Assembly (NCBI GenBank): GCA_964016885.1
Contig: OZ024752.1
Coordinates: forward strand, 41,788,001-41,852,000
Length of the DNA stretch: 64,000 nucleotides
DNA from: Eledone cirrhosa
Taxonomy: Eukaryota
Direction: 5' to 3'
The position numbers and the translations under genes are program-made. Under the pieces are notes generated by a model. It was not told the DNA's origin, did not search any database, and saw only the letters and a program-made list of their open reading frames with translations. This document shows positions 8,635-54,981 of the stretch, one piece after another. How positions within the stretch are numbered: the first letter of the stretch is position 1; every line of letters begins with the position of its first letter.

Positions 8635-8695
8635 TTTTATCTGATGAAAGCGCACCAATGTTGTCTTGGTTGCTCTTGAAATATATATAATAAAA
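8635..8695 (+). ncRNA. Type-I hammerhead ribozyme motif (family b)
   Basis: TTTTAT-CTGATGA-[AAGCGCACCA..TGGTTGCTCTT]-GAAA-TATATA-TA-ATAAAA. Confidence 0.8.
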
Positions 8696-8881
8696 TAAAT
8701 ATGGTTTTATAAATATAGTTTCCATTTATTTAATATCATTGAATATTTACTCCAGTAATCTGTTGAGTGTTCTAAATCAGTTATAAGCATTTATATTTGT
8801 TGGACTTCCAACAAATTAAATATAACATCTACTTATATATATATATATATATATATATATATATATATATATATCATCATC

Positions 8882-9066
8882 GTGGATTGGCAGTATCGGT
8901 AGAGGGTCGGACGCCATGTTTTCCAGCATAGTTACGTCCCTTTACGATCTGTGTTCAAATCCCGCCGAGGTTGACTTTGCCTTTCATCCTTACGGGGTCG
9001 ATAAAATAAAGTACCAGTAACGCACTGGGTAATTGCTGGCCTTGTGCCTAAAGTAGAAACAATTAT
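8882..9066 (+). mobile_element. tRNA-derived SINE family B
   Basis: TGGCAGTATCGGTAGAG...GTTCAAATCC...GACTTTGCCTTTCATCC...GTAGAAACAATTATT. At least 7 copies in the window. Confidence 0.85.
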
Positions 9067-9072
9067 TTTACA

Positions 9073-9770
9073 TCTACTTTTCCCTGCTTGCAAGAGTGGG
9101 ACGCGTCCTCTTCAGCACAGCATCTTTCCATTCATCACGGTCCCTCGTCATCTTCTCTGTTGTGAGCTTCAGCGATCTGAGGTCAGCTCTCACCACCTCC
9201 ACCCAACCCATGCTAGCATGGAAGATGGACATTAAACGATGATGATGATGATGATGATATGTGTGAATTGGTGTTAGGAAGGGCATCCAGCCGTAGAAAA
9301 CCCGCCAGACAGTCCTATGCGAGCAAGACAACCACTCTTGCCTCAAGTGGGAAAACTCCCGTCCAAACCCATGCAAGCGTGGAATATGGACGTTAAACGA
9401 TGATGATGATGATGATGATATATATATATATATATTCCCCACAGGAACAAGCTGAAGCTGAAGCATATAGATAATATGCCCCCACACCCTCCCACTGCAA
9501 AGTGGTCGTGGAGGTGCCACGGCAAAAAGAGCACCCAGCCCACACTGTAAAGTGGACGTGTAGGTGCCACGAAAAAGCACCCAGCCCTCACTGTAAATGA
9601 GGTTGGTGTTAGGAAGGGCATCCAGCTGTAGAAATCAAGCCAGAATCAGTTCCTGTATGAGCAAGGCATGGTCAGCCGACCGGACTCTGCCCACAACAGG
9701 ACAACCCGTCTAACCCATGCTAGCGTGGAAGAATGGATGTAAAACGGTGATGATGATGATGATGGTGGCG
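9073..9770. mobile_element. Cluster of RTE 3' fragment (-) and bipartite RTE-derived elements (+)
   Basis: Minus-strand peptide ..EVVRADLRSLKLTTEKMTRDRDEWKDAVLKRTRP; several GTTAGGAAGGGCATCCAGC...(GAT)n units. Confidence 0.8.
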
Positions 9771-10295
9771 GTGGTAGTATTGGTAGTGGTGATGGTGGTA
9801 GTAGTGATGATGATGGTGGCGGTGGTAGTATTGGCAGTGGTGATGGTGGTAGTAGTGGTAGTGGTGATGGTGGCGGTGGTAGTATTGGTAGTGGTGGTGG
9901 TGGTGGTGGTAGTGGTGATGGCAGTGGTAGTGGTAGTAGTGATGGTGATGATGATGGTGGTAGTAGTGATGGTGATGATGATGGTGGTGGTGGTAGTAGT
10001 GATGATGGTGGTGGTAGTAGTGATGCTGGTGGCAGTGATGCTGCTACTGATGATTGACGATGATTCTGGATGCTCCCGAGAGAGAAAAATCCCTAACAGC
10101 TAGTCCAGCTTATCAAATTCTGTTGGTGGGTGTGGTTGTCATGTGTTGATAGATAGTTTCTGGGAGGGGGTGAGGTGGGGGGTAGGGGCTGGTATTGTTG
10201 AATATTCCTCCCCCCCCTCCCCCTCCCTCTAATATAAGACATATCTTTGACGGCACTGAGAAAAATGTCAATGATTCTAATAACAGTAGTTACTT

Positions 10296-10700
10296 GTGAT
10301 CATCATTATAATCATTTTTACATCTGTTTTTCTATACTTGCATGGGTTGGATGGATCTTTTTCAACCAACACAGCATCTCTCCACTTGCCACATTCCTTC
10401 ATCATCTCTTCTGGGAGTCTCAGCTATTTGAGATCAGTTCTCACCACCGCTGCCAAGGTCTTTCTTGGTCTACCTCTACTGCAGCTTCCTTCCACTAGGA
10501 TTTCCTGGCTTTTGTTAGCACAGCAAACACCATCCATGCGTATTACATGTTCGTACCAATGCAGTCTTCTCTTCTGCACACCGCCTCGGATTCCTCTTAA
10601 ACCTAGCTTCTTCATCATTTCATCCAAGTTCTCGGTTTTTTTTACATTTACATTGTATATCCAACGAAGCATGGTTGCTTCGTTTTTCTCCAGTGATTAA
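10296..10700 (-). mobile_element. RTE-clade LINE 3' fragment
   Basis: ORF 10424-10672 MLRWIYNV...RRLHWYEHVIRM...RGRPRKT matches the RTE RT C-terminal motifs. Confidence 0.85.
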
Positions 10701-51850: not shown

Positions 51851-52192
51851 TCATCATCATCATCATCATTTTACGTCCACTTTTCCCTGCTTGCAAGGGT
51901 GGAACGGGAACTGATTCTGGCTTGATTTCTACAGCTGGATGCCCTTCCTAACACCAACCTCATTTACAGTGAGTGCTGGGTGCTTTTTTTGTCATGGCGC
52001 CTACACGCCCACTTTGCAGTGGAATGATATGGACCCCAGTCCCTATCGTCTCATTTCTACAGCTGAGTAAACTGGAGCAATGTGAAATAAAGTGTCTTGC
52101 TCAAGGGAACAACACATCACCCGATCTGAGAATTGAACTCACAACCTTTCGATTGCAAGGCCAATGCTCTAACCACTAAGCCATGTGCCTCC
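51851..52192 (-). mobile_element. Full-length SINE family A
   Basis: Reverse complement of the 13951 copy. Confidence 0.9.
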
Positions 52193-52829
52193 ATATAAAA
52201 ATAACATTTTTGTTATACTTTGGAGGGTCATGCTGCCAATAACAACACACGCACCTGTTGGTTTTTACTTCAATTTATTATATATTTCCAGTTGGTTAGT
52301 TTAGTAACTGGATAACAATATCTGTTTCAACACATGTTTTCAGAAAAGAAATCTTGCAAAACAAATATATATAACATTATTTAGAATAAACAAGTTTAAC
52401 CCTTTTAGTACAAACTGCTTTTTGTTCTATGAAACAAAACCACCCATTTTAAAGAGTTCTTATTTGAATTAAAATCTTCCAAAAATAACTTTATATAAGA
52501 ACCATATGTTAAGTCATGATCTTAGTAATGAACTAATTGATAAATTTAGTAAATCCTTCAAACTTCTTCATTGAAATAGAGTGTCTTTTATCAGAAATAC
52601 TGTAACAAAAGGTTAAAAAGCTCCTATTTAAATTAAAACCTTCCAACATAACTTTATATCAGAACCATATGCTTAACTTACTATCTTAGTAATGAAATAA
52701 TTAATTTTTGTTAATCTTTCAAAATTCTTCATTGAATAATTGACATACAGTGTATTATTTCATTAGGAACAAAACCACAAAGGAGTTAATAAATAAATAA
52801 ATATATCAATATATAAATTTAAAAAATAA

Positions 52830-53213
52830 TAATTGTTTCTACTTTTGGCACAAGGCCAGCAAATATCCCAGTGTATTAGTGGTACTTTATTTTATCGACC
52901 CCCGTAAGGATGAAAGGCAAAGTTAACCTCGGTGGGAATTGAACTCAGAATGGCAAGGGCCGTAACTCTATGCGTCAAAGCATGGCGTCCGACCCTCTAC
53001 CGATACTGCCAATCCACCACCCTCAAAATAATTGTTTCTACTTTTTGGCACAAGGCCAGCAATTATCTCAGGGTATTACTGGTACTTTATTTTATTGACC
53101 CCATAAGGATGAAAGCAAAGTTAACCTCAGCGGGATTTGAACTCAGATCATAAAGGGCCGTATCTCTTTGCTGCAAAGCATGGTGTCTGACCCTCTACCG
53201 ATACTGCCAATCT
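52830..53213 (-). mobile_element. Two tandem SINE family B copies
   Basis: Reverse complements of 8882-9066 at 52830-53021 and 53028-53213. Confidence 0.85.
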
Positions 53214-54032
53214 AAAAATTAATAATAATTAATAAATAAATAAGTTAACAAGTAACTAATGAAAGACACAGAGAAAATGAAAGACAATTCAATAGAATTT
53301 AATCAGACAACTGAACTGAAAGTCAATTTTAACTGGCAGAGATTCTTTGAAGATATTCACAGAATGTTCTACCATAACTATAATATAGGTTTTAGATTTG
53401 ATCTGACTACAAAACTCTGTGGTTTGTATGATACTAATCAATAACTACACACACACACACACACACACACACATACATATATATATATATATATATATAT
53501 ATATATATATATATATATATATGGTGGCTGCCAACTTGTTTTCGAGTACGGCCACTACTTTATATCCATGTAGGAGAAACCCTACCGATGCGCTGAACGA
53601 GTGCGACTTTTTAGTCCAGCCAGCGACTTGAAAACTCTGGTACAAACACTACACTTGTGACAATTATTGACACATAGTGCTGGGCCCATGGTACCATGTG
53701 ACGACAAGTGCAGAGAGATCTCCAGATATAAAGCAATGCCTGTGCCGTGAAGCTTTTATAGTGAGCAAAGGCACTGCACAAAGCCAGTCCCACTCTCTTA
53801 ACCAAGATGATATTTACCAAAAAGAAGAACAAGTCAACATCATTGGATACCATCAGGGTTGCAGGTGTTATATCAGAGTTTTCCTTCTCCTAGAATTCTG
53901 CCTTGACAAAGGCTAAGGGGTCATCTTTCCCGGTGATTTTATATGCATACATACACACATATATATACACACACACACCAAAATACATGATGAAGACTAG
54001 ACAATTATTTTAATGACAATGCAACACTAAAA

Positions 54033-54633
54033 TGCACCCAGTACACTCTGTAAAGAGGTATTGCTGGTGCCATGATAACATACACCCAGTACACTCTGTA
54101 AAGAGGTATTGCTGGTGCCATGATAACATACACCCAGTACACTCTGTAAAGTGGTATTGCAGGTGCCATGATAACATACACCCAGTACACTCTGTAAAGA
54201 GGTATTGCTGGTGCCATGATAACATACACCCAGTACACTCTTCAAAGAGGTATTGCTGGTGCCATGATAATATACACCCAGTACACTCTGTAAAGAGGTA
54301 TTGCTGATGCCATGATAATATACACCCAGTACACTCTGTAAAGTGGTATTGCTGGTGCCATGATAATATACACCCAGTACACTCTGTAAAGAGGTATTGC
54401 TGGTGCCATGATAACATACACCCAGTACACTCTGTAAAGAAGTATTGCTGGTGCCATGATAACATACACCCAGTACACTCTGTAAAGAGGTATTGCTGGT
54501 GCCATGATAACATACACCCAGTACACTCTGTAAAGTGGTATTGCTGGTGCCATGATAACATACACCCAGTGCACTCTGTAAAGAGGTATTGCTGGTGCCA
54601 TGATAATATACACCTAGTACACTCTGTAAAGTG
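54033..54633 (+). repeat. 48-bp tandem array (~12 units) of the RTE-5' module
   Basis: Unit CACCCAGTACACTCTGTAAAGAGGTATTGCTGGTGCCATGATAACATA. Confidence 0.9.
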
Positions 54634-54926
54634 CTTGGTATTAGAAAAAGCATTCAGCATGACACAGTGTGTATCAAGACTAACCCTTTAATTACAGGTA
54701 CAGTTTCATTTCTCCAGCTAAGTTGACTGGAGCACATGACAGATAATTTTGCTGAAGGACAAAACACACACCACTGGGAGTTCAACTCACAATTGTAAGA
54801 TCTTTAACTGAAGACCGAAACCACTAAGACACACATACGCACACACAAACATACACACACACACATATATAAATAAAATAAAATAAAATAAATAAGTCAA
54901 ATGTTTAAAATTTGGCTTCGTTTATT

Positions 54927-54981
54927 ACTGCTATATATATTTCGGTGACAGCCATCTTTGGCTGTGACCTCTTCAGGCAGT
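54927..54981 (-). ncRNA. Type-I hammerhead motif (family i)
   Basis: Reverse complement reads ACTGC-CTGAAGA-[GGTCACAGCCA aaga TGGCTGTCACC]-GAAA-TATATA-TA-GCAGT. Confidence 0.85.

Follow-up and report, generated by a model that had tools for sequence, protein, structure and literature searches.

Type-I hammerhead motifs with a mostly palindromic stem III at the probable ends of Penelope-like elements in the octopus Eledone cirrhosa

Background

The closest described counterparts of the sequences studied here are the minimal type-I hammerhead ribozymes (min-HHRs) of metazoans, in which, as reported by Cervera and De la Peña (2014, PMC4209133), helix III comprises 1-2 bp with a palindromic loop, an arrangement that blocks cleavage by the monomer and permits cleavage by a dimer. 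The available text of that paper and its supplement adds that the palindromy of positions 15.2-16.2 and loop 3 emerged although it was absent from the descriptor, that the consensus is GAAAN-palindrome-NUH with palindromes differing by family (CG, UA, AU, GC and longer), and that hammerheads occur as opposite-strand pairs 100-700 bp apart. In its assays, the single motif was inactive, whereas dimers and trimers were weakly active. Here we analyze a 64,000-nt stretch of the Eledone cirrhosa genome (GenBank assembly GCA_964016885.1, contig OZ024752.1, positions 41,788,001 to 41,852,000 of the forward strand; hereafter, “the window”). It contains hammerhead motifs that very probably mark the 3' ends (pseudo-long terminal repeats, pLTRs) of about nine families of Penelope-like elements (PLEs), present as likely dead, 5'-truncated end-pieces that are single or inverted, and with a stem III of predicted dimeric type.

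The dimer picture is restated for PLE hammerheads in a review (PMC6765202) which, in its available part, cites Lünse et al. (RNA Biol 14:1499) and speaks of ribozymes that “cleave RNA as dimers.” The PLE hammerheads of Lünse, Weinberg and Breaker, as summarized there, have a palindromic, extremely short stem III and cleave as dimers, as is likewise predicted here. To judge from the available text of PMC4209133, the window motifs resemble its min-HHRs in being type I, with a short stem I, palindromes that vary by family, opposite-strand pairs, a U-rich upstream and an AU-rich downstream flank, mostly single copies and a dimer model. They differ from the typical forms in that most window families have palindromes of 4-8 nt, which places them nearer the Drosophila, Aedes and rotifer variants. 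Non-LTR retrozymes and the satellites of newt and axolotl are also type I with a short helix III, and the amphibian ones act as dimers, according to the accessible portions of PMC7229834 and bioRxiv 10.64898/2026.07.22.740005; retrozymes, however, are head-to-tail tandem repeats of ~170-400 nt, whereas the window motifs are single or inverted and never tandem.

The manner in which PLEs insert has been described as well. The available text of Craig et al. (PMC8557442) reports that copies can be inverted and 5'-truncated, that the tail is found on one side and that there is a bias toward microsatellites, and that of Frangieh et al. (PMC11167929) ascribes the tail to two internal start sites for reverse transcriptase (RT) and describes cleavage as AT-rich. 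Both sources give an insertion structure that the window matches, in its six inverted pairs and in a tail that only one arm bears. The window also shares with PAc, the Poseidon PLE of Anolis carolinensis treated in PMC11167929, a hammerhead close to where the pLTR ends, insertion at AT-rich sites and a tail at one end. As presented in that paper, PAc is a full-length active element assayed in vitro, with a protein-assisted hammerhead that overlaps the start of the open reading frame (ORF).

The palindromic stem III and the dimer cleavage of PLE hammerheads are therefore already known and published, and the families of the window may be undescribed members of this known kind. Our literature search, which missed most subscription papers, found no relevant paper on PLE hammerheads of octopuses and none on cross-family (heterodimer) hammerhead tests. 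The window amounts to a compact natural test set, with nine families in 64 kb: a homologous pair in which the palindrome has been rewritten (families A and A2), a pair that shares its palindrome and differs in stem I (A and F), a G.U variant and a non-palindromic family. With such a set, one could tell what stem I and stem III each contribute to the choice of a partner.

Hammerhead motifs in the window

The window is non-coding, with 37% GC, 43% of its length masked as tandem repeats, and repeats present that resemble tRNA-derived short interspersed elements (SINEs). We searched it with a type-I descriptor (CUGANGA, stem II, GAAA, 0-14 free bases and UH) that sets U16.1 and H17 through the pairing of stem I and is blind to stem III, and we took 100 local dinucleotide-block shuffles as the null for the count. 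The descriptor matched 17 type-I motifs, against 0.1 ± 0.3 in the shuffles. Three degenerate motifs joined by eye (13799+, 43120- and 15590+; motifs are named by their 5' coordinate and strand) bring the total to 20. About nine families can be told apart among them: A (joined by an A-like copy at 51647), A2, and B to H. A first-pass annotation covering part of the window had listed eight of them, and all eight stem III strings stand where it placed them, between GAAA and UH, those at 54934 and 16297 on the minus strand. Seven of the eight pass the descriptor; the motif at 13799 (stem III at 13825) fails it, with two contiguous stem I pairs followed by a C.C mismatch. The motifs and the insertions that hold them are as follows.

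2066..2111, minus strand: hammerhead, family G; inverted partner of 2137..2182, inverted repeat 2021-2227, followed by (AT)n
2137..2182, plus strand: hammerhead, family G, CCACTGG (interrupted palindrome); outside the part covered by the first-pass annotation
8641..8689, plus strand: hammerhead, family A, stem III TATATA (C3 to H17); a single arm whose tail terminates in (TA)n at 8834
13799..13830, plus strand: hammerhead, family D, stem III TGCA (13825); stem I interrupted, strict descriptor failed
15590..15624, plus strand: broken family H motif, GAGC; a U is missing at the cleavage site
15888..15934, minus strand: hammerhead, family G, single arm
16295..16322, minus strand: minimal hammerhead, family E, CG between GAAA and UU (16297..16298); classic min-HHR form
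28214..28494, no strand: inverted-repeat insertion (93%) with both A2 motifs; right arm ends in (TA)n
28267..28321, minus strand: hammerhead, family A2, TGCGCA; inverted partner of 28387..28441
28387..28441, plus strand: hammerhead, family A2, stem III TGCGCA (28434)
33432..33462, minus strand: hammerhead, family C, CTAG; inverted partner of 33608..33638, inverted repeat 33412-33659
33608..33638, plus strand: hammerhead, family C, stem III CTAG (33633)
40480..40529, minus strand: hammerhead, family B, TGATCA; inverted partner of 40663..40712, inverted repeat 40417-40775
40663..40712, plus strand: hammerhead, family B, stem III TGATCA (40705)
43007..43376, no strand: family A inverted-repeat insertion; a single long predicted hairpin, -216.5 kcal/mol
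43071..43120, minus strand: hammerhead, family A, TATATA, decayed stem II; inverted partner of 43261..43310
43261..43310, plus strand: hammerhead, family A, TATATA (43303)
44859..44908, minus strand: hammerhead, family A, TATGTA (G.U-compatible)
45164..45210, plus strand: hammerhead, family A, TATATATA; with 44908- forms the inverted unit 44794-45274, flanked by (TA)n
51331..51365, plus strand: hammerhead, family H, non-palindromic GAAC; a counter-example
51601..51647, minus strand: hammerhead, A-related subfamily, TATGTA
54932..54976, minus strand: hammerhead, family F, TATATA (54934..54939), with its own stem I

The core (CUGANGA, GAAA and UH) is intact in 19 of the 20 motifs, 15590 being one U short. 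Stem I has 4-10 contiguous pairs in 17 motifs and just 2 in family D, and the stem II hairpins have predicted energies of -2.2 to -13.5 kcal/mol. A, its A-like copy, A2, B and F (motifs 8641, 28387, 40663, 43261, 44908, 45164, 51647 and 54976) have in common that the fourth stem II pair is mismatched, as C.C or C.U. Stem II opens with G-C in family F, without the extra base found in published forms, and with A-U, U-A or U.U in A, A2, B, C, D and G. Taken together, we read the motifs as sequences of type-I hammerhead ribozymes, with predicted self-cleavage, whose stem III is very short and in most cases palindromic. An Rfam scan of the window returned zero hammerhead families at the gathering score; the hammerhead models in Rfam represent the canonical forms and may pass over minimal ones. 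Among variant cores with U3-A8, one weak candidate at 58509+ was rejected.

Palindromy of stem III

Sorted by stem III, the 20 motifs comprise 13 strict palindromes, two with TATGTA (44908- and 51647-, self-complementary via G.U), three with CCACTGG (2137+, 2111- and 15934-; a central mismatch, CCA-C-TGG) and two that are non-palindromic. Strict, G.U-compatible and interrupted palindromes together account for 18/20, both exceptions belonging to family H. The first-pass annotation had called all of its strings self-complementary, which is true of the eight that it listed and does not extend to the full set, where 13 are strict and the rest deviate; its “all” reflects selection, since the motifs with TATGTA, CCACTGG and GAAC or GAGC had been omitted.

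We scored palindromy on the inner bases only, per family and against the composition of the window, with families taken as independent. The outer pair was excluded because a monomer requires it anyway. At window composition, the chance of inner palindromy is 0.255, 0.098 and 0.062 for 2, 4 and 5 bases, respectively. The inner stem III is palindromic in 7 of the 8 informative families (P ~6e-6; family E has no inner bases), in 5/6 when the two TATATA families are set aside (P ~4e-4), and still in 4/6 when, in addition, family G with its CCACTGG is scored as a failure (P ~7e-3). A control set of 41 chance matches to the core-plus-stem-I pattern (39 viral-contig loci and 2 metagenome-contig loci) contains one strict palindrome, of 2 nt, and three G.U-compatible strings; these viral and metagenome matches are chance-like, nearly all of them without a convincing stem II. 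The palindromy of the window motifs is non-random and above chance.

Predicted energetics and choice of partner

Within a monomer, stem III is predicted to cost +4.7 kcal/mol for 6-nt, +6.0 kcal/mol for 4-nt and +3.6 kcal/mol for 8-nt inserts, and it cannot form at all with CG. The earlier judgment that the strings are too short for a stable hairpin therefore stands across the range of +3.6 to +6.0 kcal/mol, the exception being CCACTGG at +0.4 kcal/mol. In-register dimer duplexes, on the other hand, come to -1.7 to -10.5 kcal/mol in 8/9 families by nearest-neighbor prediction. The contrast between an unstable monomer stem III and a favorable dimer supports the double-hammerhead interpretation that the first-pass annotation had put forward, and which was already in the literature.

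It had further proposed that cleavage would need two copies of the same family. Because a swapped dimer pairs the 5' strand of one copy with the 3' strand of the other in stem I, in addition to stem III, both stems were tested in 88 ordered cross-family pairs, with at least 4 pairs required in stem I and -1 kcal/mol or better in stem III. Five pairs pass stem I, six pass stem III and none passes both (0/88), in agreement with that proposal at the level of prediction. The palindrome is nevertheless not the chief source of specificity, since stem I alone rejects 83/88 pairs and the palindromes of A and F are identical. What the model predicts is same-family pairing mainly through stem I.

Variation between families and among copies

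Families A and A2 share 69% identity over 259 aligned columns (blastn), ~40 of which are shared TA repeat, in an alignment that spans the motif and the tail up to the TA run. Their stem I is identical, while stem III reads TATATA in one and TGCGCA in the other, so that from A to A2 two pairs are altered on both sides, the central pair included. As the central pair is impossible inside a hairpin and possible between two copies, its change fits intermolecular pairing, and this palindrome swap is the best single piece of evidence that we have. It also bears on the idea that the palindromes vary independently and were selected separately in each family. The letters do differ between families, but A and A2 are homologous, A and F share TATATA, and H is non-palindromic; separate selection is better recast as compensatory change among related families, with exceptions. 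Because A and A2 are homologous, the compensatory change would descend from a common ancestor, which is stronger evidence of pairing than a separate origin. Family relationships are only roughly resolved, since a comparison of flanks with the motif excluded found similarity in just 2/45 family pairs and missed the A/A2 homology found by blastn. Separately, F (54962-54976, minus strand) and H (51331-51345, plus strand) have 15 identical bases covering the core and the start of stem II, with a different stem I and with TATATA versus GAAC in stem III.

To compare copies, we aligned reads and contigs to 43000-43400, the family A pair. Of 12.5 million restriction-site-associated DNA (RAD) reads carrying the same species label, 27,378 aligned; so did 4,948 contig records from a second sample, 61 from organism B and 2 from organism C. 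Family A is high-copy. Among 40 of the 107 family A variant rows, none falls in CUGANGA, GAAA or UH and 14 fall in stem II; 27 of these listed rows, near the motifs, were assigned to motif parts. The sole row in stem III among the 40 is A>G at position 4, which turns TATATA into TATGTA and is supported by 14,991/22,375 RAD reads, 52 contigs of the second sample and 3 in the second organism; this read share does not equal copy frequency, because a few RAD loci dominate the reads. With TATGTA strict palindromy is lost, yet an 8-position duplex with two G.U pairs is kept. Decay at CpG of an ancestral TACGTA into TATATA and TATGTA is unsupported: neither TACATA nor TACGTA occurs in the seven family A motifs of the window, and neither has a row among the 40 of 107.

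Structure of the insertions

Twelve motifs form six inverted pairs with their 3' ends outward, in units at 2021-2227, 28214-28494, 33412-33659, 40417-40775, 43007-43376 and 44794-45274. A (TA)4+ run lies 20-130 nt beyond the predicted cut in 9/20 motifs, against 15% of random positions. Often one arm halts in TA while the opposite arm continues into a tail, and a common tail is found in A at 8641+ and A2 at 28321-. These A/A2 tails (8742-8757, and the tail of 28321-) also share a pyrimidine-rich stretch that ends in CAG and looks like a splice acceptor, a speculative likeness. The pLTRs of PLEs are known to contain introns.

There is no same-strand motif pair within a single insertion in the window, as a tandem pLTR-ORF-pLTR arrangement would have, and no descriptor match lies inside a tandem array in the window. 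The closest same-family, same-strand motifs are ~1.8-1.9 kb apart and belong to separate insertions (43261+ and 45164+; 43120- and 44908-). The inverted units are predicted to fold into one hairpin, at -216.5 and -186.7 kcal/mol. Because the antisense arm is transcribed first on either strand and the unit folds as a hairpin, a read-through RNA would bury the ribozyme. With no same-strand partner per insertion, the copies of the window are most likely fossils.

Interpretation and alternative explanations

The core, stems I and II, the palindromes, the outward inverted pairs and the TA-rich or (TA)n ends can be seen directly in the window, and from them we infer strand swap and cleavage. In an active tandem element, two same-strand pLTRs would swap strands, their palindromes would join as one intermolecular stem III of 4-10 bp, and each catalytic half would cut the partner copy after UH. 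Selection on active tandem lineages would keep palindromy while the letters change, and the copies in the window mostly would not cut.

Several observations weigh against this reading. Family H, with GAAC at 51331+ and GAGC at 15590+, is non-palindromic, and as a dimer it gains nothing, its stem III remaining unfavorable at +2.4 kcal/mol; family G, conversely, could form 3 extra pairs around a triloop within the monomer, at a predicted +0.4 kcal/mol. TATATA is cheap to arise in the TA-rich DNA of the window. The published extra base between 9 and 10.1 together with G10.1-C11.1 is found in full in H alone and partly, as G.U, in E. By E-value, Rfam gives zero hammerhead families among the best 150 of 285 rows, and targeted Rfam scans of families D and C gave no hammerhead match. 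Finally, no RT or GIY-YIG domain was found by Pfam among 150 of the 171 non-repetitive ORFs of the window, for which reason PLE membership rests on architecture. The same Pfam search gave 6 weak unrelated matches, all below the cut-off, and three-frame translation around 19 motif sites revealed no recognizable PLE ORF; such an absence would be expected of short, 5'-truncated ends.

One alternative is that a protein of the element folds or binds a single PLE hammerhead, or that the hammerhead has a non-catalytic role, with the palindrome serving RNA dimerization or protein recognition. The PAc hammerhead, which also counts against dimeric self-cleavage, provides the precedent: as described in the available text of PMC11167929, it fails to cleave unless PAc protein is present, insertion in vitro can proceed without it, and no RNA-seq ends were found at its cut site. 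The low activity of min-HHR dimers (PMC4209133, in its available part), the departure of families G and H from strict palindromy, and the lack of G10.1-C11.1 in most families point the same way. We nonetheless consider this alternative unlikely, as the central pair has changed in a compensatory manner from A to A2, which fits intermolecular pairing, and the dimer and trimer constructs reported in the available text of PMC4209133 cleave where single motifs do not.

We regard it as improbable that the insertions are non-autonomous elements, similar to retrozymes or to miniature inverted-repeat transposable elements (MITEs), that transpose as whole inverted-repeat units and carry the hammerheads along passively. 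Six of them are indeed near-complete inverted repeats of 200-480 bp, and no ORF was found; but the lengths of center and arms vary within family A (43007-43376, 44794-45274, and a single arm at 8576), the tail is on one arm only, tandem hammerhead repeats of 170-400 nt as in retrozymes are missing from the window, and inverted 5'-truncated copies are a described product of PLEs (PMC8557442, available text). It is barely credible that the palindromes are the outcome of chance or ascertainment, hand-picked and with TATATA as background from TA microsatellites. Such an account can appeal to the TATGTA, CCACTGG and GAAC/GAGC motifs left out at first and to the 9.8% of window 4-mers that are palindromic, but the unbiased descriptor still yields palindromes in 7/8 families (5/6 without the TATATA families), against just 1/41 control matches. 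The ends of PLE families with a dimeric stem III thus remain our preferred explanation. An extension of it, to which we give little credence, is that stem III and stem I would together act as a self-recognition code among co-resident PLE families, A and A2 having kept stem I and rewritten the palindrome to avoid cutting a competitor's RNA. If true, the genome would contain at least nine mutually orthogonal dimeric hammerheads, of a variant type without G10.1-C11.1 and with a conserved pyrimidine mismatch in stem II.

Other repeats in the window

A 364-bp inverted repeat (92%) at 3782-4145 has arms that contain CTGATGA and a possible stem II and stop where GAAA is due; it is possibly a PLE end cut short within the hammerhead. 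Further local inverted repeats, at 1612-1847, 14684-14943, 18972-19081 and 21905-22295, have no hammerhead match, and two of them lie beside (TA)n; they may be further PLE ends, or MITEs. At 25436-27627 lies a 58-bp satellite in 38 copies, with a minus-strand CTGAAGA in each unit and no GAAA or stem; it was rejected as a hammerhead. The tRNA-derived SINE-like repeats form a family of ~350 bp with ~94% identity, at 13945-14297, 40057-40410, 45275-45606, 51849-52194, 55100-55451 and 4608-4878. In one SINE-like copy, the 3' part has expanded into a 127-bp tandem array at 4739-5380.

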